A stretch of 64,000 nt of DNA from Candidatus Omnitrophota bacterium (GTDB lineage Bacteria > Omnitrophota > Omnitrophia > Omnitrophales > Aquincolibacteriaceae): NCBI GenBank assembly GCA_043803685.1, contig JAZDJU010000072.1, positions 28,889-92,888 on the forward strand, given 5' to 3'. A program made the translations under genes and the position numbers. This document shows, piece by piece, positions 21,137 to 49,965 of the stretch; positions within the stretch are counted from its first letter, which is position 1, and each line of letters opens with the position of its first letter. The notes under the pieces were generated by a model. That model was not told the DNA's origin, did not search any database, and was given only the letters and a program-made list of their open reading frames with translations.

Positions 21137-21343
21137 ATGTCTTCAGAAGAACTTGAATTTCGACTCTCGCAGATCCGGGACAAAAAAGTCGCCACCGAGA
21201 TCCGTCGTTTTCTTTTGAACCTTTTCCTTCTTTTTGACGGCACACCTCCGCCGCATATTCAAACCTACATCGCCGAGATCATGGAACTCGTGGAAGCACG
21301 CCGGGTTCCCGAACGCATACGCGTCGCTCTCAATCCGATGTAG
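21137..21343 (+). CDS. Small hypothetical protein (68 aa)
   Basis: RBS AAGGGAG; amphipathic helical sequence. Confidence 0.5.
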   Translation: MSSEELEFRLSQIRDKKVATEIRRFLLNLFLLFDGTPPPHIQTYIAEIMELVEARRVPERIRVALNPM

Positions 21344-21721: not shown

Positions 21722-21967
21722 ATGGAGCATGTCACGGAAACACCCAAGATCTCGCCGCAAGATCCGATGTCGAATGGTACCTGGGTCCAGATCACCTTCA
21801 TCCTTGATCCTGAACTCTACCAGATCCTTTGGGAACGCGCTGAGGAGGAACATCGGACCCTTTCTTGCCTCGCCCGCGAAGCCGTTATCCATTTTTTGAA
21901 AAGAACAAACATTCCGCATTTAGCCAGAAAAACCTCTGTCGCGAAAAATTCTGAGGACCTTCTATGA
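21722..21967 (+). CDS. Ribbon-helix-helix (CopG-like) DNA-binding protein
   Basis: RBS AGGAGG; VQITFILDPELYQILWERAEEEHRTLSCLAREAV; ATGA overlap with the giant gene. Confidence 0.7.
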   Translation: MEHVTETPKISPQDPMSNGTWVQITFILDPELYQILWERAEEEHRTLSCLAREAVIHFLKRTNIPHLARKTSVAKNSEDLL

Positions 21968-24900
21968 ACTTTAACTGTTCTTGCCCGCACAAATTTACTG
22001 CACTATTTGTCGCTTTTGTTTTTGGTTGGAACCAGATCCTTTGGGCGGGGGAGATCCTTCCGAAGGATTATGTCGTTCCTTCGACGCAGCTTTTCGCGAC
22101 AACGCCCGTGACAGGAACGATCCAGGCGATCACAACGCCGCCGGTCAAGACTTTCACAACGACAGACTTTTTATCAAATGAACAGGGGCCTTTGTCACCT
22201 TCCACTCCCGCCGCCAACGATATCACTCACTATGATTACGAGCGTTATGATTTTCAGGATGCGCTTGATCTTCTGAGGCCGGAGTTCTCAACCGCGGTGA
22301 TCGTGAAAAAGATCACGGTTGAAGACCTGAGAAAGCTCGCGGAGCTTCCATTCGAAACCGGTGTGATCGTACTTCATGGGGAGATCGTTCTCTTTACTTC
22401 CGGGGGTAAAAGCGAACTCGGGATCCTTTCGGCCGCCAGTCAGTTGATTAAAAAAGCCACTTTTGTTTCGCATACGCATACCGGAGGATCCTTGGTGACG
22501 GGACCTTCCGAATTCGATCTCGCTCATGCGGGGGATCAAGAGTATGTGATCACTGAGGAAGGTGTTTATGCCTACGATCGCACAGGGCTTCTTAACAATG
22601 GGGACGTCTGCTCCTATGGCACCTACATTGAAAAACTCAATTGGGCTGTTAAAAATGCCATGCCCGAAAAGGATCAGGTCGAAGCCCGGAAAGACCTGAA
22701 CGCCTTTATCGCCGATCAGGATCTCTATAACGCTTCTTCCGACCGTAAAGTGTTTCGTTCGGCAGAACCCCCTGCGGTATCAGGAACGACTTATTCAGCG
22801 AGCGCGATCACGGCGTTATCATCGACTCCTTTAGCTAGCGCTAGTTTGAAGACGACATTGCCAGGGCAGAGTGCCAACGGGACGAACAATTTCGTGCAGT
22901 ATGATTCGACGAAGTTCTCATTTGAATACAGTCTGCCTGTGGAGCCGGAGACGGTGATTGATGCGGACAGTGAGAATGATGATTTTGCGGTGGGACAGAT
23001 CTCGTGGGGTTATTTCAACAGTTCGAATGTCTTTGTGGGGAGCGGAGCTAATGTGGGGAGTCCGTTAGTGATGGCACTAAGGGCGGATCACGTGATGCGA
23101 GCGAAGGTAGAGGTGGTGGACACGACGGGAGCGAAGGCGCAGTTTTGGGCGGATCTTTCAACGGGTTACCAGAATTTTAGTTTTGATGTCAGCGGGTTGA
23201 ACGAGTCGAGTATCGCGTCGGTGACCGTGGTGTCGGATGTGGCACATGGTGGGACGAGCGGTAAGATTTACGTGATCACGAATGGTCTGAGTTATACGCC
23301 AGTGGTGGCGGGGACGACGTATTCGGCGAGTGCGATTACAACGCTACCTTGGGCTCCTGCAGCAACTTCCAGCCTTGGTACGACCTCTGCTGGGCAGAGT
23401 GCCAACGGGACGAACAATTTTGTGCAGTATGATTCGACGAAGTATTCCTTTCAATACAGTCTGCCTGTGGAGCCGGAGACGGTGATTGATGCGGACAGTG
23501 AGAATGATGATTTTGCGGTGGGACAGATCTCGTGGGGCTATTTCGATAGTTCGAACGTGTTTCAGGGGACGGCTGGGAATGTGGGGAGTCCATTGCTGAT
23601 GGCGTTAAGGGCGGATCACGTGATGCGAGTAAAGGTGGAGGTGGTGGATACGACAGGTGCGAAATCCCAGTTTTGGGCAGATCTTTCAACGGGGTACCAG
23701 AATTACAGTTTTGATATCAGCGCGTTGAATGAATCGAGCATTGCCTCTGTGAGCGTGGTGTCAGATGTGGAGCATGGCGGAACCGCAGGGAAAATTTACG
23801 TAATAACGAATGCCCTGAGTTACACGCCTGTGGTGGCGGGGACTGTCTACAATCTTGCCAACATTTCGAGGTTTTTCGCGAGTCCGGTGGTGGGATCAAG
23901 TCACGGGACGACAGTAGCCTCAGACACAGCGACGGTGACAGCGACGCAGACGAGTTCGACGATGTTTAATGTGAATTCCCAGGTGAATGTGGCTGGGGAA
24001 TACACAACGAGTACGATCGGATGGGGCTCATTTAATAGTTCGAACGTGTTTGTGGGGACCGGGGAGACTTTAGCGAATACCGTGATGTTTGCGTTGAACG
24101 GGACCGCCGGGAAGAAGTTGAAGGTGGAGTTTGTTAACACATCGGGGGTGAAGAAGTCGTTCTGGGTGACGCCTGCTACGACGCATCAGAATTATGCATT
24201 TGATATTACGGGGCTTGGGACGGTTGGGATGATCAATTTCGTGAGTAGCGAGGTGGGGACGACGGCGTACACGGTGGAGACGAAGGGGTTGGCTTTTACT
24301 CCGCCTGTCCAATATTTTTACGACAGTGCCGGCAATCTTATCCAGAAGATCGTCAGTACCTATTATGACAACAAAAAACCTGCCACGGTCGATGACTACC
24401 GGTATTCCAACGGGCTTCAGACCTTTCTATATCAAACGACATACGATTCGGCTGGCCTGAAGACTTCTTATAAATCGACTACGTATCATACCGACGGGAA
24501 AACGGTCAAAATATTCACGGCCTATTTCTTCAGCGCAGGTGTTAAAACAGGCTATAACCAGGCCACTTTTAGTGCTGCGGGCGTGAAGACTCAGGATAGC
24601 GCTGTGACGTATTATCCGAACGGTACGACGGTGAAGACTTCCGAAAGCCGTCCCTTTGTGAACGGTGTGCCCACGAATTATTATCAAATCCAATACGATT
24701 CTTCAGGATTAATGATCGGAAGCAGCTCAACAGCCTATTACCCGGACGGAAGAACGGTAAAGTCATCTCAGGAAGATTATTATGAAGTAGGAGTTCGGAC
24801 AAGTAAGAAAAGTTCCTCATATACGATAAGTGGAGTGAAGACCCAGGATTGGAATGTCACATATGACTCGAATGGCACCACGGTTAAGACGATCGATGAC

Positions 24901-27900
24901 ATTCGATATGGGAATAACCTTCGGACCTATTTGTACCAGACGGTCAACGATTTCGCCGGCGTAAAGACCCATTATATTATGACGACTTATCATCCGGATG
25001 GTCAGACGGCCAAGGTGGTTAAGGATGAGTATTACGCAGGGGCGGTCAGAGCGGGCTACAACCAGGCGACCTACAGTACCACGGGTGTGAAAACGCAAGA
25101 TAGTGCGGTGACGTATTATCCGAATGGTACGACCATGAAGACTTCCGAAAGCCGTCCTTTTGTAAATGGTGTACCCACGAATTATTATCAGATCCAATAT
25201 GACCCTGCCGGACTAAAGACCGGAAGCACTTCAACAGCTTATTATTCAGATGGAAAGACGGTCAAGTCATTTCAGGAAGATTTTTATGAGAATGGTGTCA
25301 GAACACGAAAATATTGTACAGATTACAATACTGCGGGTTTGCGGACGCATCTGCTGATCCAGGTCTATTACACGGATGGAAAGACAAAAACCTCAGACGA
25401 TTACGATTACACCGGATCGCGTCTTATTAAACGCATCTTAAAGGAATATAGCTCGGCCGGGATTGAAACCAGTAGCTTAACGGAAAATTATCCCCCGCAG
25501 ATTCTCACGAACACGAGCGGATACGCTGTGCGTTACACGGCGGACGGAAATAGTTACGAAGAAACGATCTCTCTTACGGAAGGTTTGAACGCGGTCCAGA
25601 AGACAGTGAATGGTTATAACGGAACACCGGTTCTGATCGAATGGAAGATCACGCTGGACACCGTACCACCCGAGATCCTTTTCACTTCACCTTCGGTCAC
25701 CAACCAAAAAAATTACACTTTGACCTATACCGCCGACGGTATCGCCAAGACGAAAGTTTTTGCAGATCTCGAGGAAGGAGTCAACGCGCTTTCTATTGCG
25801 GAGGTTGATCCGTCTGGCAATCAAACCATTGCGAATTGGAATGTGACGGTAGATACGATCGCCCCAATCGGTGCGATCACCATCAATGGAGGAGCTTTGT
25901 ACACGTCCTCAAAAGAAGTAGCGTTAGATCTTTCGGGGGCTGATACGGGGTCAGGCGTGAACCAAATGAGATTTACTATTGATAGCGGGACAACTTGGAC
26001 GGCTTGGGAGTCATTCGCTGCAACAAAGGGGCTGACGCTTGCGGGTGCGGACGGGGATAAAGTCATCCAATATCAGCTTCGGGATCAAGTTGGAAATCTT
26101 AGTCAGGTTTATTCTGATTCCATCGCGCTGAAGACAATCCCTGTCATTCAATTTACGTCCGCGACAGCGGTTACAAATTCCGAGTATTTACTGACCTATA
26201 CGGTCAACGGGACGGCTCAATCGGAGCGTTGGCAGCTTTCTGCGGGCGTGAATCCGATTTTAGTTCGAGTCCCGGGAGATTTTTCCACTTTCGTGAGACT
26301 TGACGTCACGCTCAATCAACCCGATATGACCCTTCCTGCGATGCCTGTTCTACCGACGCTTCCGGAGGGTCTCATTAGCGTGACGGCTCAAAACGGGCTT
26401 ATCATAAAATATGACGGGAGCACGATCGTTTCCGTCGAAAATCCAGGAGAATATCAGCTATATCTTCCTCAGTTTGACGTGAACGGTACGCTCACGGATG
26501 GAGTGTTTCAGTTTTCAAATGGCGATAAACTTCTTTATCAAAACTCCAAGCCGGTTCTTAAGATAACGAGTTCGGGAGAGAAAACCCTTTATGGCAGCAC
26601 GGGAATCGTAAATTCCGTGATCGAACCAGATGGGAGTCGGATTTGGTTCAGTTACAGGGTGGACGATCAGGGCCAAGTTCTTTCGGTTCTGTCCCGAGAT
26701 GCTTCTGCAACGAGCTTGTATGAAGGAGGCATCCCCTCCCGGATCCTGATGCAAGACGGTTCCGATATCCGTTATGAAGACGGTCTTTTGAGCAGTTATC
26801 GCGACGCAACCGGCAATCTCTATCAATACCAGATCGTGGAATTGCGGTCTTCCGGCACGATCACCGGTTACCGATCCATTTTGTCCGATGTCACGCCTGC
26901 GGGGAGCGCTTCCCCGATCCCGTTTTCCGCGATCTCGGCGGATCTTTCTCAATACCCGGCTATTCAAAGTACCCTGGGTAACAAGATCTCGACTGAGATC
27001 GATTATGACGCGAACTCGAAAATGACAAAGTTCATTTCGGGAAAAGGAGAGGTTCTTACGCTTCATAATCAACTGCCCGAGTATCTCACGGACTCGTCCG
27101 GTAATCTGAAACTCTTTGAAAGCACAGTGAATTCCGCAGGAACTCTTTCTTCGGTGGCTCTGACACAAAATAGTGTTCCTTCACAGGTTTTTGATGCCAG
27201 TGGGAATATCCGTTCCATTGCTTTGAGCGACGGAACGGTGTTTCAGGTTACGGATCACAAACTCGGGGCAGTCACGCTCTCCGACGGTAGCGTTCTGACC
27301 GATCTAAGGTGGAATGCTTCGACCCAGATCATGACGGATTATGTGAGAACGTACACGGACGGGACAAAGTCCATTTACGCCAATTCCCACATGGTCCGCA
27401 AGGAAGAGCCTAATGGAAACATTACGAGCTATATTGATCTGAACGGGGTCGATCAGCCGGATCTTATGACGACGGCCGATGGCCGGACGTATCACTTTAT
27501 TACTTTCCAGAACGCGCAAGGGCTTTGGGACCGGAAGACCGAACTTGTAAAAATGACACTTTCGGATGGCAGCCGTGTCGAGTTCGAGAATGGGAAACCT
27601 GTGCGTTATATCAAGAGCGAGCAGGTCCAACTCGACCCCCTTAGTGTTCCAATGCTTTCTTCTGATCGTTCCTATGTCGCTTCGGTAATCCTGTCGAACG
27701 CGGAATTGCGTTCTCTGACGATCGACTCCGCGGGAACGATTCTTTCAGGGGAGATTCTTTTTAATGACGGAACGCAATATTTCATCGAAAACGGCGCTCT
27801 TGTCAAACAGATCACGGCAGATGGGAAAATCGTAGAGGTAGAGACCACGGTCCCTCTTTCTTTTGAGAAGTCCATGCCGGTCAAACCGGAACCGCTTACT

Positions 27901-33900: not shown

Positions 33901-36900
33901 CGGACCGTTACAGAGATCAAGAGCTCGAATGAATTTCAATCCAAGACCAACGACAAAGCCGCGATCATCAACCAGGTTCAGACATTCCTTAACTCGTATG
34001 TCGCAACTGCCCATGATCCGGCCGCACGTGCTGCTCTTGCGCAGTCCCTTCGGCTCGATCCCTCCGAGATCGTGGATCTCCGCCAGGAAGAGGTGACGGC
34101 GATCATCGGTTGGCTCGAGGCTCGGGATCTTCATTTCGGGCAGTCCGCATTTCTGTCACTCAAAAGCATGCTTTTCTCCCGCGGGATCGATGTGCCCATG
34201 GTGACGCTTGGGGTTGAAACCGTGCTTGTGGATATTCTCACCGGCACGATCAACAAGTTTACTGAAGGGGATCTTGTGCTTTCTGTATTTTCATTTCAAC
34301 GTGCGGCAAAAATCCACGGAGCGGACATTACCGGGGTCCGCTACGCTTTAAGCGACCTTAAGGCGCTTTATCAATCAGTCTGTGGTTTGTTGTCTGTGGA
34401 CTGTGGTCTAAGAATGATCGCGCATGTAGCGGGAAACCACTTTGTGGTGATCACGGCTGTGACGGCAGAGGGCATCACCTATTTTGAGACCAATCAAGGC
34501 CATGCCGGTGAGCTTGTTAACGGGACTTATGATCAATTCATGAAAGTTTGGGATACGGGGAACGGGACAGGGCATCTTGTGGTTTTTAAGGATCAGGCCA
34601 TTACGGCCAAGGTGATCCATGATCAAACAGCGATGAAACTCCGGGGAGCATTTTTCCCTTTGGTATGGCTTGCCTGGCTTGCGGTCGCTTCGTTTGTTCT
34701 GTCGGTGGCAAGCGTTGTCGTGTCTTATATTAGTCCGACTCTTGGCAAGATCCTGGGGTATGCGGCCATGGTGGTCGGGATCGTTGCGATCGCGGCGAGC
34801 GTTGTGAATTTCGCGGTCCAGGGATTTAGCATGGCGCTTAATTCCATTAATAGCGTCGGGTTCTTGCAGTCGGTCCAGAACGGATTTACGATGCTAGGGA
34901 ATGCGATCTGGGAAGGAGTGGCGCATGTCGGCCAGTTCCTGAAGCAAGGGTTTACGTTCCTTGCGGATGCTTTTACGGGAAATTTCAGCGGTTTGGGTGC
35001 CGGGATCACACAGATCGGCAAATTTTCGATGGACGGCGTAAAGGTCATGTTGGATTCCTCCGGCGTGCTTGTGAAACAAAACCTGACTTTCGGGCAAATG
35101 GTGGGCCGGAGCATGATCTCTGCAGCGATCAATATCCCGGTGTCCAAAGGACTTGAAGGCCTCGGCATCGATCCCAGAATGGCTCGGCTTGCCGGCGCGT
35201 TCGTCTCGGGGGGAGTGGTCGGGCTCGGTGGAGGCGCGACGGGATTTCTTCAGTCAGGGGTGCAGGCGTATCTGCTCCAAGGGGTTTCCGAGATAGGACT
35301 CAAGCTGGATCTGCCTCCGCCAATTACCGCGGCATTGTCCCTTGCGGTCAACGCGTCTCTGACCGGTCTTTTTAGCTCCAATTTCGTTCTTAAAGAAGCG
35401 CTTCCTCAGATCTTCCCCCAATTTACTCAGCAGCTGACCCTTGGCGGCATCGAACTCCTCGGCTGCTCCCTCGCTCTCGATCCCCGCATTACGCAGTTGA
35501 TCGGTTTAACGACCGCCGCAGCCGTGGGAGGCGTCACAAGAGATCTTTTGAATCCGAATGGCATGACGTCTTTGTGGCAGTCCATTCAAAACGCCGTGTT
35601 AAGCCGGGAAGTGGCGGGGGGGATCGTTTCGATAGGGGCTGGATTTGTGGTCCATGAGTTGGGATTGGATCAATCGTTGCTTGGATCCTTGTCGAGTCGT
35701 CTTGTGGCTGGAGCGTTTAGTGATTTTCTGGCCTCGCCGAAGAATTTCAGTCTCGCCGCCAGCATCATCAAGTCGACGGACGAATCTTTTAGTGAGTTTT
35801 TCGATCCTGCATTACTGCCACAGCTTTTGACCGCCGTGATGGATCATGGTCTGGCGGATGGGATCGAACAATATGCCACCATGCTTTTTACCCGGGAAAC
35901 TATTAACGAATTTACGTCCGCAGGAATGTCGATCGGCCAATGGATCCAAAACAGCATGTCTAATGCGGAAGACGTTGTTTACAACGGACAGTCCCTGAAA
36001 CGTTTGCGTCTTCTTCAGAACGGGAAAGCGATTAATTTCTTTTATGTTCCCAAGAACGACAAACTGGAACTTTCAATGATCTATGAGGAATATGCCAACG
36101 GCCGTCGGCCAAGACTCATAGAATTTGTTACCGATGAGCAGGGCAGGATTACGGAAGCTTATGTGGAGGAGCAGGCTGTGGATGGGACGATCCATCGCGA
36201 CAAACTTGATGCGAATGGGATGATTAAAGAAGTGACATTTCGAGATTGGAATGAGGAAACCTACGCGAAGCTCTCGTTTAATAGCGCCGGCGGTCTCGAG
36301 TTCACCAATTACACGCTGGGTATTACGGATCATCTTTCCGAAAAAGGTGATTTTACGTTTAATTTTACCGCGGCACCGGATTTTCATGATTTTGATCAGC
36401 TGCTTTTCAATTACGATACGAATCTGACGCCGGAACAAAAAAGCAGCCTGGCAATGTTTACCTATGGGAACGGTTTCTGGAACCAGCACGTAGCACCCGA
36501 TGCGACTTCGCCGGTTATGGCGAATTTTATGGGTAAGATGGCTCAGGATCAGGCCATGACGGGACACCCGGGGATCGTGTTGTTCGATCAAAACGGGAAT
36601 ATCGCGTTGGATTCCTATGGGAATGTTCTGACCACAGCATCGTTACCAATAGGACTTTACAAGGAAACCGGACTGGTGGGGAATATCCTGAATTGGGCGG
36701 CCAATACTTGGCTTGGTGCCACTTTCATGCGGGACTCCATTGAGGCGCAATATAGGAACTATTTCGATCTTATTAAATTGAATCAAAACAGATTCGGCTT
36801 AGATCCGAATATTCCATTCGTCCATTTCGCTCACTCGGGAGACTTTCAGCCATTGATCCAGGCGCTTGAGCATATGCCAGACCCATATCGCGAAAAGATC

Positions 36901-37329
36901 ACAACGGTCGTCGCTTACGGAACTCCCTACATTGGAGATGGGATTATCAATGATCCATTTCTCAAAACATTGATCCGCGTTAAGGGAGAATATGATGCTG
37001 TCCCGTTCCAGGAACTCGGTCAAAAATTTCAAATTGAAGACGCGAATGGTAATGTGCGGCCCGTTGAAAACCAGTACAATATTGAGATCTTAAAGGCCGG
37101 GCATAGCGATTTTAGTTGCGCTTCCGGGCCGAGTGGCAATGCGTGCTCTGATTTCGTTAATCAACAGACTAGCATGTTTATGAGGGATTTAAATTTAGCG
37201 GCTAATGATAAAGCGGACCTAGAGTATTTATTAACCTCCAATTTAATTCCTGGTGTGCGCTACGACTCGGTTAATAAGCTGGTAATAGTGAATCCCAACG
37301 AATATGTATCTCCAAATGGTGCCCGATGA
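21964..37329 (+). CDS. Giant (5121 aa) secreted multidomain protein, polymorphic-toxin-like
   Basis: Uninterrupted 15.4-kb ORF with signal peptide, internal repeats and several recognisable enzymatic motifs (see findings). Confidence 0.92.
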   Translation: MNFNCSCPHKFTALFVAFVFGWNQILWAGEILPKDYVVPSTQLFATTPVTGTIQAITTPPVKTFTTTDFLSNEQGPLSPSTPAANDITHYDYERYDFQDALDLLRPEFSTAVIVKKITVEDLRKLAELPFETGVIVLHGEIVLFTSGGKSELGILSAASQLIKKATFVSHTHTGGSLVTGPSEFDLAHAGDQEYVITEEGVYAYDRTGLLNNGDVCSYGTYIEKLNWAVKNAMPEKDQVEARKDLNAFIADQDLYNASSDRKVFRSAEPPAVSGTTYSASAITALSSTPLASASLKTTLPGQSANGTNNFVQYDSTKFSFEYSLPVEPETVIDADSENDDFAVGQISWGYFNSSNVFVGSGANVGSPLVMALRADHVMRAKVEVVDTTGAKAQFWADLSTGYQNFSFDVSGLNESSIASVTVVSDVAHGGTSGKIYVITNGLSYTPVVAGTTYSASAITTLPWAPAATSSLGTTSAGQSANGTNNFVQYDSTKYSFQYSLPVEPETVIDADSENDDFAVGQISWGYFDSSNVFQGTAGNVGSPLLMALRADHVMRVKVEVVDTTGAKSQFWADLSTGYQNYSFDISALNESSIASVSVVSDVEHGGTAGKIYVITNALSYTPVVAGTVYNLANISRFFASPVVGSSHGTTVASDTATVTATQTSSTMFNVNSQVNVAGEYTTSTIGWGSFNSSNVFVGTGETLANTVMFALNGTAGKKLKVEFVNTSGVKKSFWVTPATTHQNYAFDITGLGTVGMINFVSSEVGTTAYTVETKGLAFTPPVQYFYDSAGNLIQKIVSTYYDNKKPATVDDYRYSNGLQTFLYQTTYDSAGLKTSYKSTTYHTDGKTVKIFTAYFFSAGVKTGYNQATFSAAGVKTQDSAVTYYPNGTTVKTSESRPFVNGVPTNYYQIQYDSSGLMIGSSSTAYYPDGRTVKSSQEDYYEVGVRTSKKSSSYTISGVKTQDWNVTYDSNGTTVKTIDDIRYGNNLRTYLYQTVNDFAGVKTHYIMTTYHPDGQTAKVVKDEYYAGAVRAGYNQATYSTTGVKTQDSAVTYYPNGTTMKTSESRPFVNGVPTNYYQIQYDPAGLKTGSTSTAYYSDGKTVKSFQEDFYENGVRTRKYCTDYNTAGLRTHLLIQVYYTDGKTKTSDDYDYTGSRLIKRILKEYSSAGIETSSLTENYPPQILTNTSGYAVRYTADGNSYEETISLTEGLNAVQKTVNGYNGTPVLIEWKITLDTVPPEILFTSPSVTNQKNYTLTYTADGIAKTKVFADLEEGVNALSIAEVDPSGNQTIANWNVTVDTIAPIGAITINGGALYTSSKEVALDLSGADTGSGVNQMRFTIDSGTTWTAWESFAATKGLTLAGADGDKVIQYQLRDQVGNLSQVYSDSIALKTIPVIQFTSATAVTNSEYLLTYTVNGTAQSERWQLSAGVNPILVRVPGDFSTFVRLDVTLNQPDMTLPAMPVLPTLPEGLISVTAQNGLIIKYDGSTIVSVENPGEYQLYLPQFDVNGTLTDGVFQFSNGDKLLYQNSKPVLKITSSGEKTLYGSTGIVNSVIEPDGSRIWFSYRVDDQGQVLSVLSRDASATSLYEGGIPSRILMQDGSDIRYEDGLLSSYRDATGNLYQYQIVELRSSGTITGYRSILSDVTPAGSASPIPFSAISADLSQYPAIQSTLGNKISTEIDYDANSKMTKFISGKGEVLTLHNQLPEYLTDSSGNLKLFESTVNSAGTLSSVALTQNSVPSQVFDASGNIRSIALSDGTVFQVTDHKLGAVTLSDGSVLTDLRWNASTQIMTDYVRTYTDGTKSIYANSHMVRKEEPNGNITSYIDLNGVDQPDLMTTADGRTYHFITFQNAQGLWDRKTELVKMTLSDGSRVEFENGKPVRYIKSEQVQLDPLSVPMLSSDRSYVASVILSNAELRSLTIDSAGTILSGEILFNDGTQYFIENGALVKQITADGKIVEVETTVPLSFEKSMPVKPEPLTPAEVDYRNELIDAQFRYFTDPLGIDADSGMPVDHYLSDTHQQSSYSQATLVGFWAEILATIARGDYAPSSLGRAQAFQKLESLLAELQKVQSQAGWNGMFSFFGISKQTQPVYDQSGNQTGTKLVVSYSRQFDNIGIGDNLNLSVSLASVVGALSGITLEDPTLSSQRDAIVTRIHSILSLQDAGYAKFYDTSANQFYSVRKFDSNGDSAFDSGHMDRVFNEFLPGLVWLAARNPSYKPALDNLDVTIRPYTTRDGTRIENAVPFDGGAFQMFWPLMHVDETKYPEFNVALSNFLYSQAEFVSQNGIPGLLSAGDDPGNGYNGKIGLTSASETDDPLSTSVGSLYGTAGAFLLAPHYTLQFLKNIEAKFPGVRTNSGLVDSIALRNGQAVYSKQAFGVDQASFILSLLGTSQNYFTQYLRQKGLEDQFDALYKGMSFNLAPAIAQNPPPPNFDLSTPALYSGIHQQPDGLANALTKRSSFIPMIVDPELGEGRIYDYLDPEGNFHHTEIEFGTGRDLKKMPLAQYLLLPGRGDMSRLLFSAVSLDLLNEATTQGAFYTPSYGYANSSLATDPIGEVRHIDFNLQRISSPVGLYATYNNRDLSQYDYISVPVRLGSNAPEGVSLKFEFAGMGEVFVTGALTRDWQYVQIPVSKPAGLLQKIAVVIQSPDGKAVSGDVYLGPLSAFKVRTSNQMDWQAMLGKSDSEIRSFLKSKISRQSTGGGVMEADEVLEDFKLDSDGKLVDGVLKRADGSIQYFRNGQLMKWVFRNGRTVLFEKGLATFILDLAQGKLQEGRFYYDSTFRGEIQSFVMQDNDSKKIYGSDGKLQTVVKNGWITHFKDGKIDSIALSESTLTRLVFAEDQSLLRAHVKMNDGREFDIDQGGEQAVVRPNGAKVYYKGSRIVGIETSQNGRTDFTYATNSSGQLTGVTASFHETVMDSLGHSSIALRTMSLFEYLLRPERSLEKQEILREPPQQILPIANIAGFSVGYLPSGEITNGQKFYQDGVPYGWYQFRYNSLSGPTLGMVAGNYTQPVSLGAYDFIQVTLEQDPGMTWNQDFNFVLKTPTRQTLYTFELNNAPNQYQSFGFSLAGKSGSEGEITLEVVREAGGVGKTGQVNIKDISYLAIKSLDHPLWENDVSINATELQGLKIEADTYTDIGVEIASHVPLSYDKLVPLLDMPSSVSYSDKDSTHLGQLTGFRRFDGAEVSVSGSDVTKVVLPDGTVNEYSQQGNVSQGTIKDGSGSGAAVGSLNYHYGELRKITQSDGKVYELSYEFDAQGDPITLIKDDLTGDVRRFKDGKLIESISSGGVSTTYEYQNGELIGAELFYKNRVLQSSSYQFIGDETQVTDAKGTTWYYDANGNLKKHLTKDGYLYAYSDYSATPQDLPEMPQDFKSANVFNATDLRAVSLIGYEAKDGMQVRQGDEGLVEILSPAGDKAVNVVLDDDRKIKSGQIQFANGLILRIENYLPVGGRLTDGILFSANFPTGNGKVTLLQDSTGAYTGSMFEKNGTYYSYDAYGFLTKISSPNGESQQFTYFLEASASDAYGVLNRQQVAFNGVPFPEEMTIQAGNDLVLSGVSGVLAKREGDTGFIISAYDDSLNQWKVLSGKFSSDGDRILMRNFLKNLKPGQYVAVAVKDPDFSRAGEDILALLEGIGSGQVRTASAGNQTWCLFGNEYLKKGEGREQAGGSSFSTVTEEKIFSVLAEGSNPVYNRMNMFLSVPKTAADAYASFLKAYEPNKPKGDLEEITVYSKENQIVYSESVNGVRTFYDKGKPRETYTSDGELLYTHEYGCPNGGCPDPNDPYLARVTLVKARLDFETESAKAHQQIEQVKFDALHQLAEQEEVAQAGIKQEVSNSIAVLDAYISQLQSQRYRSVKVCKSAFLGFGKKCHEEQYDVPGIAGMISEAQNQKVELLQNIQPGQIATIPTLIAQKKLEIEAATTQKMTDLAAQEASVLHDIYERETAPVLSDIYRRLLGRDPSKEEVSSEIARFGTIQAVDLNRTVTEIKSSNEFQSKTNDKAAIINQVQTFLNSYVATAHDPAARAALAQSLRLDPSEIVDLRQEEVTAIIGWLEARDLHFGQSAFLSLKSMLFSRGIDVPMVTLGVETVLVDILTGTINKFTEGDLVLSVFSFQRAAKIHGADITGVRYALSDLKALYQSVCGLLSVDCGLRMIAHVAGNHFVVITAVTAEGITYFETNQGHAGELVNGTYDQFMKVWDTGNGTGHLVVFKDQAITAKVIHDQTAMKLRGAFFPLVWLAWLAVASFVLSVASVVVSYISPTLGKILGYAAMVVGIVAIAASVVNFAVQGFSMALNSINSVGFLQSVQNGFTMLGNAIWEGVAHVGQFLKQGFTFLADAFTGNFSGLGAGITQIGKFSMDGVKVMLDSSGVLVKQNLTFGQMVGRSMISAAINIPVSKGLEGLGIDPRMARLAGAFVSGGVVGLGGGATGFLQSGVQAYLLQGVSEIGLKLDLPPPITAALSLAVNASLTGLFSSNFVLKEALPQIFPQFTQQLTLGGIELLGCSLALDPRITQLIGLTTAAAVGGVTRDLLNPNGMTSLWQSIQNAVLSREVAGGIVSIGAGFVVHELGLDQSLLGSLSSRLVAGAFSDFLASPKNFSLAASIIKSTDESFSEFFDPALLPQLLTAVMDHGLADGIEQYATMLFTRETINEFTSAGMSIGQWIQNSMSNAEDVVYNGQSLKRLRLLQNGKAINFFYVPKNDKLELSMIYEEYANGRRPRLIEFVTDEQGRITEAYVEEQAVDGTIHRDKLDANGMIKEVTFRDWNEETYAKLSFNSAGGLEFTNYTLGITDHLSEKGDFTFNFTAAPDFHDFDQLLFNYDTNLTPEQKSSLAMFTYGNGFWNQHVAPDATSPVMANFMGKMAQDQAMTGHPGIVLFDQNGNIALDSYGNVLTTASLPIGLYKETGLVGNILNWAANTWLGATFMRDSIEAQYRNYFDLIKLNQNRFGLDPNIPFVHFAHSGDFQPLIQALEHMPDPYREKITTVVAYGTPYIGDGIINDPFLKTLIRVKGEYDAVPFQELGQKFQIEDANGNVRPVENQYNIEILKAGHSDFSCASGPSGNACSDFVNQQTSMFMRDLNLAANDKADLEYLLTSNLIPGVRYDSVNKLVIVNPNEYVSPNGAR
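22780..24305 (+). repeat. Internal tandem ~176-aa beta-rich repeats of the giant gene (two close copies, one diverged)
   Basis: GTTYSASAIT...GQSANGTNNFVQYDSTK...VEPETVIDADSENDDFAVGQISWGYF...SYTPVVAGT repeated with long stretches of DNA identity. Confidence 0.85.
24390..25320 (+). repeat. Duplicated YD/MORN-like repeat block in the giant gene
   Basis: KTQDSAVTYYPNGTT(V/M)KTSESRPFVNGVPTNYYQIQYD occurs twice, within many TYY.DGKT units. Confidence 0.8.
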
Positions 37330-38183
37330 ATAAACCTCTTTTTTTATTATTTATGATATTTATTGTTTGTCCTCATTTAGGATCAGCTGATTCCGGGGCA
37401 TCAAAAACTCAACCCAATCAATATCAGAAAGCTGTAAATGCTCAATCTCAGTATCATGCTTTGCGTACGCAGGGCAATCGATTGCTTAACGAAGGTAGAT
37501 ATCCCGAATCTCTTATCTGTCATGAAAAAGCATTTAAAATGGCGGAAGGAACAAGCCTAGAGGCTGTTTCAAGAAACAAGTTAATGATTTTATATGAGAA
37601 GCTTGGTAGTTATTCGAAAGCTTTAGGGCAATGCCAGTGGTTTCTAACTCGATCTAATGGAGATTCTCCGCTTTGGGATGATTGGGTGAAAACTAAGCAA
37701 CGTCTTCTGCGAAAAATTGAGGCGCAGAAGCGTGGGGAGAAGATAGCAGAGCCTAAGCCTGCGTCTTCAGGGACTAAGGCGATTCGCAATGTTGTTGATT
37801 TTGAAACCGCGTCTTATGCTGATCAAAAAGAATATCTTGAGAAGAAATTCCCCGAGAATACGGAGATTTTAAAACTTTCAAAACAGGCATTATTAGCCGA
37901 ACATGCAGGCAAATTCGCTGAAGCCAAAGAGTACTATGAGCAATTATTGTCACGCAAAGAGGATGTGACCGCTACTCAGGGAGAGGGCGCTTGGCCCATG
38001 CTTCATTGCGCTGTTCAGCGCACCTCGGAATTGACCGGCGATGAGGCTCGTGAGAAAGAAATGCTTGGCTGGATTAAAGCGAATATGCTCGATCCTCAAG
38101 GCCAGTTTCATCAATCTCTTTCCAATCTTATGCTTGACGTGATCGATCATCTGAATAAACAGATCAAGAAATACCAGCTTTAG
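37326..38183 (+). CDS. Exported TPR-like protein, probable immunity or partner of the giant protein
   Basis: ATGA overlap with the giant gene; signal peptide; helical TPR-like segments (GRYPESLICHEKAF, GKFAEAKEYYEQLL); AT-richer DNA. Confidence 0.7.
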   Translation: MNKPLFLLFMIFIVCPHLGSADSGASKTQPNQYQKAVNAQSQYHALRTQGNRLLNEGRYPESLICHEKAFKMAEGTSLEAVSRNKLMILYEKLGSYSKALGQCQWFLTRSNGDSPLWDDWVKTKQRLLRKIEAQKRGEKIAEPKPASSGTKAIRNVVDFETASYADQKEYLEKKFPENTEILKLSKQALLAEHAGKFAEAKEYYEQLLSRKEDVTATQGEGAWPMLHCAVQRTSELTGDEAREKEMLGWIKANMLDPQGQFHQSLSNLMLDVIDHLNKQIKKYQL

Positions 38184-38189
38184 AACGGA

Positions 38190-38973
38190 GAAAGGGGTCA
38201 CACCTATTTATTTGCGGATCATACTGTCTCTGAAAAATTCTGATGGAAAGGAGGTTGGGTCATTCAAACTGATCGATGCCAAGAAAACGACGATTCATCC
38301 TTCCCAACATTCCTCATCACGCTATTCAGCGTGGAAATAATCGCCAAGATGTTTATTTTGATCAAGAGGACCGGGACTATTATTTTCGATTTCTTCACCT
38401 CGAAAGTTCCCGGAATCGGGTCCGAATTGGTGCTTATTGTTTAATGACGAATCATATTCATCTGCTTTTATATCCTGAGGATGCAACGGGGCTGGTCAGG
38501 ATGATGAAAAGCGTTTCGCAGAATTACACGCAATATGCTAATAAGAAATACCACCGCAGCGGAAAGCTTTGGGAAAACCGCTATAAGCTACATCTCGTGG
38601 ATCCTGACCGCCAGTGGTGGTTGGCGCGGTATATTGAGAAAAATCCATTGCGTGCCAGGATGGTCGAACAAGCTGAACATTATCCTTATTCCAGCGCAAG
38701 AGGGCATTTACTGGGGGAAGAGGATAAGATTTTAAGCTATGATATTCTCGGTGCGTTTAGGGATCGTTTCCGGAAGTTTTTTGAAGAAATTTCGAGTGAA
38801 GAGGAAAGCGAGTTGCGCCGGTTGCGGGAAGTAATCCAACAGGAGAAGGCTTTTGGCGGGCAGGAATTTTTGGAAAAAATACAAACGATTTTCGGATTCG
38901 ACTTTGAACTTAAAGAGCGGGGAAGGCCAAAACGGAATGAGTTATCCACAAATAAATAGGTGTGACCCCTTTC
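38190..38973 (+). mobile_element. Y1/RAYT transposase element bounded by 30-bp inverted repeats
   Basis: GAAAGGGGTCACACCTATTTATTTGCGGAT (38190-38219) matches the reverse complement of 38944-38973 at 29/30. Confidence 0.8.
38276..38959 (+). CDS. REP-associated tyrosine transposase (Y1_Tnp, HUH)
   Basis: MPRK.R, HAIQRGNNRQ, AYCLMTNHIHLL, GKLWENRY, YIEKNPLRA, YPYSS, RGRP. Confidence 0.93.
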   Translation: MPRKRRFILPNIPHHAIQRGNNRQDVYFDQEDRDYYFRFLHLESSRNRVRIGAYCLMTNHIHLLLYPEDATGLVRMMKSVSQNYTQYANKKYHRSGKLWENRYKLHLVDPDRQWWLARYIEKNPLRARMVEQAEHYPYSSARGHLLGEEDKILSYDILGAFRDRFRKFFEEISSEEESELRRLREVIQQEKAFGGQEFLEKIQTIFGFDFELKERGRPKRNELSTNK

Positions 38974-39036
38974 CTCTTTCTCAGGGGAGGGTAAGTCGAT
39001 GCATTTTGATGCTCATTCATGGCAATAGGTGTGCGG

Positions 39037-39459
39037 ATGAAAAATAGAGAGGGGACATTTTCTTGGGTGATGGTCGGGGCTTTCTTGATCGCGGGGATGG
39101 CGTTGAGTCCCACGGGATACGGGGAGGAACCGGCCAAGGAATATTACGAGAGCGGGCAATTGAAGTCGGAGCAGTCGCTGAAGGGCGGAAAGCTTGAGGG
39201 GCCGTTCAAAGTGTATTTCGAGAGCGGGCAACTCCGGAAAGAAGGGGCTTTCAAGAGCGGGAAGCGGGAGGGGGCGTTCAAGACCTTTGCTGAGAACGGG
39301 CAGTTGGTTCTGGAGGAGTCTTACAAGAATGGAAAACTGGACGGGGCGTTCAAGACGTATCACGGTACCGGAAAGCTCAGGAGTTACGCGCTCTATAGAG
39401 CCGGGACGCAGGTCGGGCTGCTCAAAATGTATGACAAAGAGGGTAAGTCAAAGCCGTGA
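39037..39459 (+). CDS. MORN-variant repeat (YwqK-like antitoxin family) exported protein
   Basis: Repeated YYESGQL/ENGQL..G.F.GGK.EG; signal peptide. Confidence 0.82.
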   Translation: MKNREGTFSWVMVGAFLIAGMALSPTGYGEEPAKEYYESGQLKSEQSLKGGKLEGPFKVYFESGQLRKEGAFKSGKREGAFKTFAENGQLVLEESYKNGKLDGAFKTYHGTGKLRSYALYRAGTQVGLLKMYDKEGKSKP

Positions 39460-39662
39460 CGTAGCAACCCGCTCCGGTGAGACTCAGGTGCGGCCCCGGG
39501 TGTTTCAGGACACTGCCGGGTGTTCGATAATTGTTTTCCAAGACTCATTTTTTGCTTTCTGTTGACGATAATACCTGGGTGCTTCAATATACGGGAGTGT
39601 GTGGGGGCGCCGAGGCAGTCGCGAGTGTCTTTGAAACGGAGTGAAAGATAACGGAGGAGATC

Positions 39663-40253
39663 ATGGCGAAGAAAAAAATTAACAGTGCAAGGATTTTGAG
39701 CTTTGTATTGATCGGGATCATCCTTATTGGGGCCGCCATGTTTTTTCTTCAAGGATCCGGGGATAAGGTGGTAAGGGCGTATTATCCCGGAGGAGAATTG
39801 GAGCACGAGTATCCGTACAAGGATGGCGTTCTGGAGGGGGTGTGTACGGGTTATTATCCCAACGGGAATATTAAATTGGAAGAGCTCTATCAGAACGGGC
39901 AGTTTCACGGGATGCGCAAAACCTATTATGAAACGGGGCAGTTGCAGTTGGAGACGTATTATCCCATGGGCAACTCGGGGTTGAGGACTGTGAAAGGATA
40001 TTACGAGAACGGGAAGCTGCAGTTCGAGTCGATCTATGAGAACGAGAATCTCCAAGAGAGGACCGTTAAAGAATATTATGACAATGGACAGGTCAAGGTG
40101 GAATCGGTCTACAGGAGCGGGCCGGAGGGTTTGGGCTCGGTGAAGGAATTTTACGAGAACGGGAAGCTGAAGACCCTGGGGTCCTTTAAGGGGGGGAAAC
40201 TGATCGGGCCGATCAATGCGTACGATGAGAACGGGAACCTGCAACAACCGTAG
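39663..40253 (+). CDS. MORN-variant repeat (YwqK-like) membrane-anchored protein
   Basis: RBS GGAGGAG; N-terminal TM; repeated YYENGKL/YYDNGQV. Confidence 0.85.
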   Translation: MAKKKINSARILSFVLIGIILIGAAMFFLQGSGDKVVRAYYPGGELEHEYPYKDGVLEGVCTGYYPNGNIKLEELYQNGQFHGMRKTYYETGQLQLETYYPMGNSGLRTVKGYYENGKLQFESIYENENLQERTVKEYYDNGQVKVESVYRSGPEGLGSVKEFYENGKLKTLGSFKGGKLIGPINAYDENGNLQQP

Positions 40254-40291: not shown

Positions 40292-40696
40292 ATGTCAGAA
40301 AATGAAAAATGCATCCTGGTCATTGACGATGAAGAGGATGTCTGCCGTATCATCAAAGAGAGATTCGAGACCTGTGGTTATGAGGTTTTGACCGCCGGGG
40401 ACGGGGCCGAGGGTTTCCGCAAGACAAAACAGGGAAAGCCCGACTGTGTGCTTCTCGATATCCTTATTCCACAAGGCGAGGACGGTTTGACGTACCTTCG
40501 CAAGGTCCGTTTTTACCATCACGAGGATCTTCAGGAACAGACACGTATCCGGCGAACGCCCGTCATCATGCTCACCGGCGCGGGGCAAAAAATGAGGCCC
40601 CTCTTCGAGTTCGAGGGGATCAGCGGTTTCGTGGAGAAGCCTTTTGATCTTGCGCTCCTCCAGAGCAAGGTCGAGCATGTCCTTCGTAAGAATTAG
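40292..40696 (+). CDS. Single-domain response regulator
   Basis: ILVIDDE, PDCVLLD, PVIMLT, VEKPF. Confidence 0.9.
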   Translation: MSENEKCILVIDDEEDVCRIIKERFETCGYEVLTAGDGAEGFRKTKQGKPDCVLLDILIPQGEDGLTYLRKVRFYHHEDLQEQTRIRRTPVIMLTGAGQKMRPLFEFEGISGFVEKPFDLALLQSKVEHVLRKN

Positions 40697-40789
40697 ACTG
40701 CGCTTGCGCCGATCCTCGGAAGGTCCTGGGGCCCACGGCCATGAGCGGCAGTCCCTTCCGGCCCTCGGGTGTGCGAGGTCTTTTCGGGG

Positions 40790-42238: not shown

Positions 42239-42248
42239 GGGAACTATC

Positions 42249-43679: not shown

Positions 43680-43710
43680 CACGCCAAGTCTTCCAAGGAG
43701 CAATATCATA

Positions 43711-45147: not shown

Positions 45148-45157
45148 CGGAAAAAGC

Positions 45158-46675: not shown

Positions 46676-46692
46676 GGATCACGCAAACGACC

Positions 46693-47736: not shown

Positions 47737-47755
47737 CGAACGGGATTGAACCGAT

Positions 47756-48547
47756 ATGTCTCAAACATTCCCAGAATTTCTTGAGCATGTTGCCGAAACA
47801 CGGCCTCTCTCGGGGAGCTATTTTGGGCCATGCGTTTCCATGCGCTGGGACGCCTGGCGAGTGATCCGGCTTGTGAATGTCGAACTGGATCGGTTGAAAT
47901 TGAGCCCCCCCCGTTCAGTGCTGGACGTGGGATGCGGCATTGGCGTTTATGAACGTGAGTTGTCCCTGCGTTGGCCTTCTGCCACAGTCCTGGGATGTGA
48001 TTTTTCCGAGAAAAATATCCAGGCCGCAAGGGACTATGAACCCTCGGCTTCTTTTTTGCGTAGTGATGCGGAGGCACTACCGCTTCGAAATGCGTCCGTG
48101 GATCTAGCTCTGGCCATTGAGGTGATGGAGCATTTCCTGCATCCGGAAAATGTGGCCGCCGAACTCGCGCGAGTGGTTCGTCCCGGTGGATTGCTGATCG
48201 TCGTTGTGCCGTTGGCGCCCCCCATTCCTTTTGTACGTACCGTTTCACGTATTGCCACGCACTTTATCGGCTCCCAGGTCATTGTCGAGGGTGAATTTAA
48301 GGAACATATGCGGATCTATAATTGCCAAACCTTAAAGAGAGCGTTCGCCCATGGCTGGAAGGTCCGTCGGTTCATAAAATTCAACCTGATGACGTTTGTG
48401 ATGGCCGCTATGGAAAAGATCTTTCCCGTATGGGCGCGTCGCAGTGCAGAGAATCGTCAGCGGTTTCTGGATGCTCTGGATGTCAGCTGCGGGCATGTGT
48501 TGTACGCTAAGGGACTCTTGATCCTTGAACGGGAGGGACTTCCGTGA
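47756..48547 (+). CDS. Class I SAM-dependent methyltransferase
   Basis: VLDVGCGIG, DAEALP, EVMEH, RVVRPGG. Confidence 0.9.
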   Translation: MSQTFPEFLEHVAETRPLSGSYFGPCVSMRWDAWRVIRLVNVELDRLKLSPPRSVLDVGCGIGVYERELSLRWPSATVLGCDFSEKNIQAARDYEPSASFLRSDAEALPLRNASVDLALAIEVMEHFLHPENVAAELARVVRPGGLLIVVVPLAPPIPFVRTVSRIATHFIGSQVIVEGEFKEHMRIYNCQTLKRAFAHGWKVRRFIKFNLMTFVMAAMEKIFPVWARRSAENRQRFLDALDVSCGHVLYAKGLLILEREGLP

Positions 48548-49947: not shown

Positions 49948-49965
49948 CGGGAGAAAATTCAATTT

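Follow-up and report, generated by a model that had tools for sequence, protein, structure and literature searches.

A giant Omnitrophota protein with exchangeable C-terminal tips and co-varying partner genes: a predicted polymorphic toxin with an unusual body plan

Omnitrophota, uncultured bacteria of very small size, are suspected of living on other microbes or preying on them, and their giant genes have been interpreted as machines that degrade cell walls, with no killing principle known. In the accessible part of their preprint, West-Roberts et al. 2023 (10.1101/2023.11.21.568195) describe Omnitrophota giants of at least 30,000 amino acids (aa) with C39-like domains, transmembrane segments and glycoside hydrolases, for which an attack on cell walls is proposed. 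The accessible part of a 2026 preprint (10.64898/2026.06.07.730766) reports a C39 architecture cluster of 24 proteins and a ribbon-helix-helix (RHH) antitoxin gene beside one giant, and gigantic multi-domain proteins in Omnitrophota are mentioned in the available text of the lipocone paper. We found no report of exchangeable tips with immunity genes in Omnitrophota giants in the accessible portions of open papers and preprints. Here we analyzed a stretch of 64,000 nt from a Candidatus Omnitrophota bacterium (contig JAZDJU010000072.1; in the following, the window is this whole stretch), which carries a gene for a giant protein of 5121 aa and, overlapping its end, the gene of an exported tetratricopeptide repeat (TPR) protein. 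Judging from comparison with related loci, the giant is probably a chromosomally fixed polymorphic toxin of this bacterium with a cognate immunity gene, its toxicity being predicted. Apart from an unusual body plan and tips without a Pfam model, it appears to be a known type of system.

Several described systems come close to this locus. With the Sec-dependent RHS/YD polymorphic toxins (Zhang et al. 2012, PMC3482391) the giant shares a putative N-terminal export signal, a long repeat-bearing body and a papain-fold (here C39-like) domain before the tip. As in polymorphic toxins in general, there is a variable putative toxin tip and an adjacent, co-varying putative immunity gene; a relative keeps an orphan remnant with an immunity-type gene, and one relative has the domain Ntox10. 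The giants differ from the catalogued polymorphic toxins in their length of 4,300-5,700 aa, in an embedded hydrolase of glycoside hydrolase family 192 (GH192) type and a JAB-like N-terminal domain, in a membrane hairpin with about 350 aa of low-charge helices before the tip, in a boundary motif of their own, in tip families that Pfam does not cover and in a fixed syntenic place in one Omnitrophota lineage. The locus adds tip families without a Pfam model and a body plan of glycoside hydrolase, Ser-type C39-like domain and hairpin, a plan that lies outside the 2012 catalogue as far as its accessible part goes. The Rhs and other YD-repeat toxins (Rhs of the type VI secretion system (T6SS), TcC of Tc toxins) combine YD repeats, a variable tip and a downstream immunity gene in the same way; in the giant, however, few repeats are detectable, no Rhs core model is among the NCBIfam matches and the boundary motif has a different sequence. 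The Rhs core carries a C-terminal autoproteolytic motif before its tip. Genes for VgrG, PAAR or Tc partner proteins were not found in the window. The logic of a serine alpha/beta-hydrolase toxin with an exported immunity protein is shared with the Tle lipase effectors of the T6SS and their periplasmic Tli proteins, but the locus has no T6SS, the tip is by sequence no member of a Tle family or another Pfam hydrolase family (36 members, E<=1) and its nucleophile motif reads AHSGD against the usual G-x-S-x-G (tips of class B, see below, have GFSGG). MARTX and large clostridial toxins likewise follow a logic of protease, hydrophobic membrane-inserting region and effector; the order of the parts differs, and homology, for which no search was made, was not seen. 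The Omnitrophota giants known as Archaeovorins and Dockerin-type giants have in common with ours the phylum, glycoside hydrolases, C39-like domains, C-terminal transmembrane segments and a suggested role in attack, and they differ, according to the accessible part of their description, in a length of at least 30,000 aa and in SecA-like, glycosyltransferase, GGDEF and other domains. Finally, the enzyme EeSGL1 (GH192; PDB 8XUJ; Nakajima et al. 2025, PMC12102758) is homologous to the giant over about 290 residues including both activity-critical residues, but here the glucanase is one domain within a protein of 5,121 aa and its substrate is predicted from homology.

In the following, WIN denotes the window locus, L0xx the related loci, P00xx the related proteins and D1 the first gene 3' of a giant. 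The features on which the argument turns are:

21964..37329, + strand: giant gene, 5121 aa, one open frame without an internal stop
35872..35901 (aa 4637-4646), + strand: boundary motif [YFL]-A-[TS]-x-[IL]-F-[ST]-R-x-T, immediately preceding the part that varies
36031..37326, + strand: variable tip of class A, a beta-rich subdomain and a predicted alpha/beta-hydrolase with Ser4958 (motif AHSGD) and His5047
37326..38183, + strand: exported TPR gene (D1), 285 aa, with an ATGA overlap with the end of the giant

A word-indexed protein search returned 21 proteins including the query. Thirteen near-full-length homologs (P0002-P0014) are 46-74% identical to the giant, with 51-75% of residues 1-5000 covered, and all homologs with a name come from Omnitrophota. 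By scanning one genome per species we collected 45 related loci, whose titles read Omnitrophota/Omnitrophica or 'uncultured bacterium' with one exception, labelled Elusimicrobia. Comparison of the homologs divides the giant into three zones: a modular part (aa 1-1230), a conserved core (aa ~1230-4640) and the tip. The core of about 3,400 aa stands between two exchangeable parts, an N-terminal module and a tip of about 450 aa. For the tip we compared the 20 related loci with a complete 3' end and defined classes by an all-against-all comparison of the last 400 aa. We observed that homology to the window giant ends between aa 4531 and 4752 in 12 of these loci, leaving unaligned tails of 464-676 aa, and that the other 8 align with it to aa 5091 or beyond; the loss of homology at the tip is likewise seen among the database proteins. 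The tips fall into at least six classes, which are unrelated or barely related. Class A comprises the window and L013, L016, L024, L021, L008, L028 and L001 (40-70% identical), and L010 and L004 belong to it more distantly (22-28%); class B comprises L002, L015, L007, L022, L006 and L005, class C L017 and L025, and three tips are singletons. The classes C, D and E and the Ntox10 tip show no similarity to A or B. The tip of the singleton L026 (= P0008) is Pfam Ntox10 (5.3e-24 and 2.4e-22), the one family that Pfam and NCBIfam found in the 20 tails, and Ntox10 is listed among polymorphic toxins with RHS repeats in the accessible part of Zhang et al. 2012 (PMC3482391). Whichever tip follows, the boundary motif is recognizable in all 21 aligned giants. 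Boundary motifs also precede the tips of contact-dependent growth inhibition (CDI) and Rhs toxins, and we see the motif of the giant as their counterpart.

The partner gene changes together with the tip. Within class A the D1 proteins are mutually homologous TPR proteins, the D1 proteins of class B form a second, weakly related TPR family, and those of classes C, D, E and Ntox10 are unrelated proteins of 108-316 aa. Among 190 locus pairs (L021 was left out, its D1 being cut by the contig end) 30 share both tip and D1, 20 share the tip only and none shares D1 only. The window D1 has an N-terminal hydrophobic signal-like segment and weak TPR matches; we found 31 homologs of about 260-300 aa, of which all taxon-labelled ones are Omnitrophota. 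The predicted location of D1 differs by tip class as well: beside hydrolase tips a signal-like N-terminus is present in 16 of 16 D1 proteins, the two class-C proteins have none, and the D1 proteins of Ntox10 and class E have hydrophobic segments spanning about 70 residues (membrane-type). The predicted location fits the role of an immunity protein for each tip class, and we propose that D1 (37326..38183) is the cognate immunity protein of the window tip. As a more specific family for D1, TPR_Slam was considered and rejected (24.5 bits against a cut-off of 35.2, no barrel domain).

To place the classes on the history of the core we used a maximum likelihood tree of aa 3700-4500. One clade (96/96) unites WIN(A), L001(A) and L002(B), and L017(C) branches next to it as sister; L007(B) is sister to L016(A) and L008(A) (100/98). 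In L015 a giant with a class-B tip and its class-B D1 precede a stretch (22736-24313) that begins with a Y1 transposase-like gene and a stop. Next come 32 aa left over from the 3' end of a class-A tip, and joined to this remnant by ATGA is an intact orphan class-A D1, which is 38% identical to the window D1. We read this arrangement as the fossil of a tip replacement. Furthermore, the GC content of tip and D1 lies below that of the preceding 3 kb of core in 21 of 21 loci. Because the classes are interspersed on the core tree, a remnant is left in L015 and tip and D1 are low in GC, the differences between the tips are best explained by exchange rather than drift. In the window the GC content is 0.51-0.59 until about 35.8 kb, 0.46-0.47 from 35.85 kb with a minimum of 0.38 at 37.2-37.6 kb, and has recovered to 0.55 at 39.0 kb; the drop begins at the boundary motif.

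A reading of the window made earlier from the sequence alone (in the following the sequence-only reading) had described the giant as polymorphic-toxin-like, with an adjacent immunity-like gene and with DNA that is AT-richer from its C-terminal domain onward. All three descriptions agree with the related loci and with the base composition: the tip classes co-vary with D1, which is predicted to be exported, Ntox10 stands in one relative, the classes are interspersed on the core tree, L015 keeps a remnant, and the GC drop begins at about 35.85 kb. Neither the C-terminus nor the next gene is invariant across the homologs; both vary, in classes that go together. 'Contact-dependent', 'prey' and 'delivers', words also used there, are interpretation: the giant may act on contact, may be aimed at prey and may deliver its tip.

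The window tip itself is predicted to be a serine alpha/beta-hydrolase, in line with the hydrolase assigned to the C-terminus by the sequence-only reading, and its family is not modelled in Pfam. An AlphaFold2 model built from 36 sequences has a mean predicted local distance difference test (pLDDT) score of 85.3 and a predicted template modelling (TM) score (pTM) of 0.75, and consists of a beta-rich subdomain followed by an alpha/beta domain. With this model Foldseek gave 89 PDB matches at E<=0.001. The matches listed comprise polyethylene terephthalate (PET) hydrolases, cutinases, Bacillus lipase A (TM by target 0.55-0.56), an acyl-protein thioesterase, a feruloyl esterase, prolyl oligopeptidases and DPP4; all of those listed are alpha/beta-hydrolases except one protein of unknown function. 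Ser4958 is kept in 31 of 31 non-gap rows of the alignment and His5047 in 36 of 36. The alignment shows an N-G-F-x-N turn, the nucleophile motif F-[AS]-H-S-G-[DN]-F (G-F-S-G-G-F in class B) and N-I-E-I-x-G-A-x-H-x-D-F. Since classes A and B share the Ser and His motifs, they are remote relatives in one serine-hydrolase family. No Pfam or NCBIfam family was assigned to the tip, and over its 36 members no Pfam hydrolase family appeared at E<=1, only noise; the last 1,122 aa of the giant gave nothing significant against the PDB by sequence, and Pfam found no family in the distant tip relatives. A match to Tle3 in the tip of the distant relative P0019 is weak and below the cut-off (E 2.2e-4). Among 1.84 billion representatives we found 33 tip relatives, most of them giants or fragments and some of them proteins of 250-780 aa with other N-termini, and the protein atlas places the window tip mostly in unnamed clusters, one with DUF900 in 17% of its members.

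Two further observations concern the tips. The proteins P0032-P0035, P0039, P0041 and P0054 (109-260 aa) match the C-terminal part of the class-A tip only; these may be tip fragments that stand alone or are orphaned, or else proteins cut off where a contig ends. The class-C tips (L017 20666-22057, L025 27476-28885) end in a region of about 160 aa with a conserved Q-x-E-I motif. For this class the NAD-glycohydrolase toxin TNT is at most a lead: the clusters nearest to the L017 tail in the atlas carry the TNT family (0.92 and 0.90), they share 141 and 124 features, below the guide value of 170, and neither Pfam nor a profile against the PDB confirmed the match.

The conserved core contains the following parts:

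27940..29202 (aa ~1993-2413), + strand: (alpha/alpha)6-barrel, homolog of GH192 beta-1,2-glucanase type, matching 8xuj_A
32725..32916 (aa ~3588-3651), + strand: ILEI/PANDER-like domain (Pfam ILEI 3e-7)
34111..34608 (aa ~4050-4215), + strand: C39-peptidase-like domain with the invariant HFGxS(4061)AF and H4159
34642..34839 (aa 4227-4292), + strand: two strongly hydrophobic helices by Kyte-Doolittle, a predicted membrane hairpin
34840..35871 (aa 4293-4636), + strand: low-charge, Gly/Ala/Leu/Ser-rich helical region by composition

In these parts the sequence-only reading had named, in order, a glucanase-like barrel that would make the system glycan-targeting, an ILEI-like and a C39-like domain and a hydrophobic Gly/Ala region, and each of them could be corroborated. 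Two CBM-like domains, which it had named as well (aa ~2440-2700 and ~2930-3110), are candidates. The barrel is homologous to EeSGL1 (8xuj_A; phmmer E 3.9e-15, profile E 5e-12), and its residues D2118 and E2201 align with the catalytic Asp and Glu of that enzyme and are invariant in 13 of 13 giants. According to the accessible part of the EeSGL1 paper (PMC12102758), mutants of that Asp and Glu lose more than 99.9% of the activity, and in clan GH-S a Glu/Phe/Tyr triad is named for XcSGL. We conclude that the core domain at aa ~1993-2413 is a homolog of GH192-type beta-1,2-glucanases with a predicted activity of this kind, which makes glucans of the envelope or the periplasm a possible target of the attack. 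The ILEI match scores 31.3 bits against a cut-off of 27.

The C39-like domain has no Pfam match in the window giant; at the aligned position Peptidase_C39 lies above its cut-off in P0018, P0019, P0020, P0021 and P0046 (23.1-33.6 bits against 22). An AlphaFold2 model of aa 4030-4660 has a mean pLDDT of only 53.1 and a pTM of 0.31, and we used its C39-like part alone, for which Foldseek ranks the peptidase domains of PCAT1, LahT and ComA first (TM by target 0.57-0.70, with a model pLDDT of 60-80 in this part). Long alignments to whole PCAT1 chains (TM ~0.15) were given no weight, and a profile of aa 4030-4660 found nothing significant in the PDB. His4159 is kept in 16 of 16 aligned sequences and the HFGxS(4061)AF motif is invariant, and this 16-sequence alignment of the family contains no conserved Cys. 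Peptidases of family C39 have their catalytic Cys near the N-terminus of the domain. Ser4061 presumably stands at the place of this Cys; the Pfam C39 matches cover model positions 40-131 only. The domain is predicted to be either a serine variant or a non-catalytic relative of C39 peptidases. The two hairpin helices reach Kyte-Doolittle means of 2.24 and 2.44 over 19 aa, and no other such hydrophobic segments occur in the giant except one weaker stretch within the glucanase domain. In aa 4230-4690 charged residues make up 10.6% against 18.3% overall, with 11.7% Gly and 10.2% Ala; the low-charge region is predicted to be all-helical at low model confidence, and its model is not interpretable.

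The N-terminal module is more variable. In the window giant it contains:

22231..22653 (aa ~90-230), + strand: JAB/MPN-like domain with H170-x-H172...S182-x-x-D185
22771..25638, + strand: window-specific repeat region, three repeats of ~176 aa (aa 270-800), then YD-like repeats with a period of 84 aa (aa ~780-1225)

A hydrophobic, signal-like stretch is visible at the N-terminus of the translation, where a signal peptide had been noted. Residues 1-460 are common to some of the relatives; others have beta-helix, discoidin, GH115_C or Laminin_G_3 modules instead, and aa 460-1230 have no counterpart in the homologs. The metal site of JAB/MPN+ domains consists of H-x-H...S-x-x-D plus an upstream Glu. 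In the 10 aligned N-termini H170, H172, S182 and D185 are invariant, and E151, to which no role is assigned, is near-invariant (at least 90% of 10 rows). Pfam Prok-JAB matches weakly in 3 of the 10 (best E 0.0015), so that the JAB-like assignment is a putative one, and a profile of the region found nothing significant in the PDB. Self-comparison confirmed the repeated beta domains: repeats 1 and 2 are 79-83% identical and repeat 3 is 33-38% identical to them. The YD-like repeats were recovered too, by their period and by a YD repeat at aa ~3319-3348 (Pfam RHS_repeat 1.8e-11; NCBIfam TIGR01643 1.2e-6). The Ig-like region matches weakly in the window giant (Big_13 E 0.009; OmpL47-type 5e-5), although more strongly in homologs. 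Altogether Pfam and NCBIfam recognize little in the window giant: RHS_repeat, ILEI and weak Ig-like matches.

From these parts a possible course of action can be drawn. The giant would leave the cytoplasm via its N-terminal signal, and its variable N-terminal module, made up of the JAB-like domain, the three beta-rich repeats and the YD-like repeats, might together with the Ig-like and ILEI domains bind the surface of a target. The GH192-type barrel would cut a beta-1,2-glucan-like glycan of the target envelope. The hairpin and the Gly/Ala-rich helices might insert into a membrane and carry the tip across, or they might anchor the giant in the membrane of its producer; both anchoring and target entry would leave the tip periplasmic, which agrees with an exported D1. 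The C39-like domain could free the tip near the boundary motif or merely bind it, and the hydrolase would attack an ester-linked component of the envelope (lipid, acylated or acetylated polymer) from the periplasmic side. In the producer and its kin the periplasmic TPR protein would bind the tip and thereby protect them. New pairs of tip and immunity gene would enter by recombination at or after the boundary motif. One syntenic family of giants follows the rules of polymorphic toxins, with an exchangeable putative toxin tip, a matching putative immunity gene and orphan leftovers, and the idea of giant predatory proteins gains a concrete, predicted toxin-immunity pair. The locus also offers parts that can be tested: a hydrolase of about 430 aa, a partner of 285 aa, a glucanase with known catalytic residues and the boundary motif.

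Several observations weigh against a toxin with its immunity protein. None of 2000 label shuffles reached the 30 pairs that share tip and D1, but the shuffle ignores relatedness, and therefore the core tree has to carry the argument. Of the 50 pairs that share the tip, 20 have no clear D1 match. Besides the class-C pair L017-L025 they involve L004, L008 and L010, in which the D1 open reading frames (ORFs) are short or split or have diverged strongly. In L021 a class-A tip is followed by a different gene, which the contig end truncates. The window itself contains neither an orphan tip nor a second immunity gene. Dedicated secretion genes do not adjoin the giant locus, and among the genes of the window there is no evident route over the outer membrane. 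With regard to the tip, Foldseek gave only modest scores, with 9e-5 as the best E and a TM by target that does not exceed 0.56, the candidate acid column Asp5011 holds Asp in 13 of 34 rows in a region where the alignment is uncertain, and no sequence link to the named toxin lipase families Tle1-5 was seen (Pfam E<=1, 36 members). Since the C39-like domain lacks the Cys of its family, release of the tip by this domain is doubtful. TPR proteins are also common as chaperones and assembly factors.

The first alternative to be weighed leaves the machine as it is and changes its target. The giant could serve competition between close relatives, i.e. kin discrimination as known for CDI and Rhs, instead of predation. 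Cognate and orphan immunity genes only make sense if neighbours carry the same weapons, and polymorphic toxins have been implicated in intra-specific conflict (accessible part of Zhang et al. 2012, PMC3482391). This speaks for kin as the target, whereas the conserved core has a hydrolase for a glycan of beta-1,2-glucan type, and the phylum is reported as predatory or host-dependent in the accessible part of West-Roberts et al. 2023 (10.1101/2023.11.21.568195). We regard competition among kin in place of predation as possible but less likely than not; both uses of the giant are compatible with each other.

A second alternative takes the giant for a surface enzyme of polymer degradation or adhesion, in which glucanase and esterase cooperate on a polymer of the environment or of a host surface, the TPR protein is a periplasmic chaperone or assembly factor of the esterase and the tips vary with the substrate. 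By fold the tip comes nearest to polyester hydrolases (PET hydrolases), cutinases, esterases (a feruloyl esterase among them) and peptidases, so that a polymer-degrading role fits them as well, which is a further point against the toxin. The GH192-type domain and the lectin-like discoidin, Laminin_G_3, GH115_C and beta-helix modules of the relatives agree with such an enzyme, a TPR partner accompanies the hydrolase tips of class A as well as those of class B, and the Omnitrophota giants are portrayed mainly as cell-wall or glycan processing in the accessible parts of preprints (10.1101/2023.11.21.568195). However, the same slot holds Ntox10 in one relative and elsewhere tips that are not hydrolases, with small cytoplasmic or membrane partners. 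The remnant with its orphan partner in L015, the switching of tips between close relatives, the low-GC cassette in 21 of 21 loci and the Ntox10 slot are signatures of toxin-immunity exchange and not of pairs of enzyme and chaperone. For this reason we consider a polymer-degrading enzyme unlikely and hold to the polymorphic toxin.

The region 3' of D1 supplied the immunity genes of a further proposal:

39019..39459 and 39663..40253, + strand: two MORN_2-repeat genes (Pfam MORN_2)

MORN_2 is presumably the family of the antitoxin YwqK of Bacillus subtilis, and the sequence-only reading had noted that two YwqK-type MORN genes follow and suggested them as immunity genes. Both genes are real (Pfam MORN_2 2.3e-20 and 1.3e-26, respectively), although they are not the next genes, a Y1 gene lying between; the suggested function did not hold up. 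As further (orphan) immunity genes of the giant system they would have in their favor the membership in MORN_2, N-terminal hydrophobic segments in both proteins, which are predicted to be exported like the TPR protein, and a place within the variable zone 3' of the giant. Yet no homolog was found in the 45 related loci at E<=1e-4, no toxin remnant lies beside them, and their GC content of 0.49-0.56 is chromosome-like and outside the low-GC block. NCBIfam gives just a weak match to an adhesin model. Moreover, they sit in a region that varies between genomes, within about 11-12 kb that L016, L022, L028, L008 and L002 lack between their giant and the AOX/SPL/T2SSE genes. An immunity function of the MORN genes is thus very unlikely. 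That the tip differences could instead be an old vertical divergence of one domain without any cassette exchange is hardly credible: A and B do share Ser/His motifs as remote homologs, with weak links via L010 and L004, but the unrelated tips C, D, E and Ntox10, the interspersion of the classes at supported nodes of the core tree, the remnant in L015 and the GC break at the boundary contradict it.

Between D1 and the MORN genes lies a gene that had escaped the sequence-only reading:

38276..38959, + strand: Y1 (HUH) transposase-like gene, in a unit with inverted repeats spanning 38182..38981

It matches Pfam Y1_Tnp (2.4e-12, 47.5 bits against a cut-off of 23) and, below the cut-off of 80, the NCBIfam model of the REP-associated tyrosine transposase (RAYT; 57.4 bits), and HUH-type and Tyr motifs are visible in its translation. 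Inverted repeats of 38 nt (38182-38219 and 38944-38981, 89% complementary) bracket the gene, the left one beginning at the stop codon of D1. These are the only two copies in the 64-kb window (0 expected), and the 45 related loci contain none. The low-GC block of the window ends exactly with the Y1 unit. Homologs follow D1 directly in L004, L006, L007, L015 and L026; including the window this makes 6 of 21 loci, with tips of class A, class B and Ntox10, and a seventh, L024, has a fragment. In this small sample of six Y1 proteins the similarity follows the tip class somewhat more than the core (WIN-L006: core 61%, Y1 39%; L006-L007: core 45%, Y1 49%). The cut in the displaced class-A tip of L015 lies immediately behind the Y1 unit. 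These observations suggest that the Y1 unit is part of a mobile cassette. A stronger form of this idea, in which tip, immunity gene and Y1 gene are exchanged as one unit and the Y1 gene product, an enzyme of single-strand DNA transposase type, drives or guides with its flanking hairpin repeats the replacement of tips at the boundary motif, is in our judgement rather unlikely; if true, polymorphic toxins would have a dedicated mechanism of cassette swapping instead of plain homologous recombination. The Y1 gene of L015 is flanked by GGTACC-containing repeats. In L004 (16602-19516) a Y1-like frame runs into an ORF with integrase core and Mu-transposase-C, followed by a gene for an IstB-like ATPase, which looks like an insertion of IS21 type into the same spot.

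On the 5' side the giant gene is overlapped by a small gene:

21722..21967, + strand: RHH-type gene, its stop overlapping the start of the giant (ATGA), with an alternative TTG start at 21680

Both junctions, of the RHH gene with the giant and of the giant with D1, read ATGA in the DNA, as had been noted. A profile of five homologs of the RHH gene matched AvtR (E 0.0025), HP0222 (0.0097) and, more weakly, ORF56 and Arc (to 0.8) in the PDB, and Pfam recognizes NikA-like in 2 of the 5 homologs (best 4.2e-5) and RHH_1 in 2 of 5. The identification as RHH protein is therefore reasonable, and a role as regulator may be supposed from it. As a fixed partner of the giant, however, the RHH gene is not supported: a homolog occurs in the same place in L010, L015, L016 and L032 only (4 of 19 loci with a 5' end).

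Further upstream lies ordinary chromosome with hrcA-grpE-dnaJ, gpsA and a gene for a FadL-type outer-membrane protein. As the order gpsA, fadL-type gene, conserved ORF of 63-68 aa and giant is kept in 10 loci, the giant has a fixed chromosomal place in this lineage. In the window this small ORF (21137..21343, + strand, 68 aa) has no Pfam family; it is 56-75% identical in 9 related loci, while a tenth (L014) has it in split form. Its place is invariably between the FadL-type gene and the giant, and it is better conserved than the RHH gene. On the 3' side we found a response regulator, six B12-binding radical-SAM genes, glycosyltransferases, a T2SSE-type ATPase and AOX-like and SPL-like genes. 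The T2SSE/AOX/SPL genes begin about 15.3 kb past the giant in the window and 3.3-3.9 kb past it in L016, L022, L028, L008 and L002. These five loci lack, in the equivalent place, about 11-12 kb within window ~39000-52600, a stretch with the two MORN genes, the response regulator (40292..40696), six B12-binding or plain radical-SAM genes (40769..49947), a methyltransferase and glycosyltransferases. The zone 3' of the giant is a hotspot of variation in gene content. At the far end of the window (61114-63999, + strand, running off the end) an exported protein of at least 962 aa is encoded, which has no Pfam family and no likeness to the giant or to the 45 loci; near its N-terminus it carries tandem 12-aa repeats of the type G-P-S-P-V-T-N-P-I-E-K-V. 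Two related loci contain small genes of toxin-antitoxin type right behind the partner gene, namely a MazE-like gene with a PIN gene in L016 (22660-23291) and a helix-turn-helix (HTH)-nucleotidyltransferase in L008 (22613-23152).

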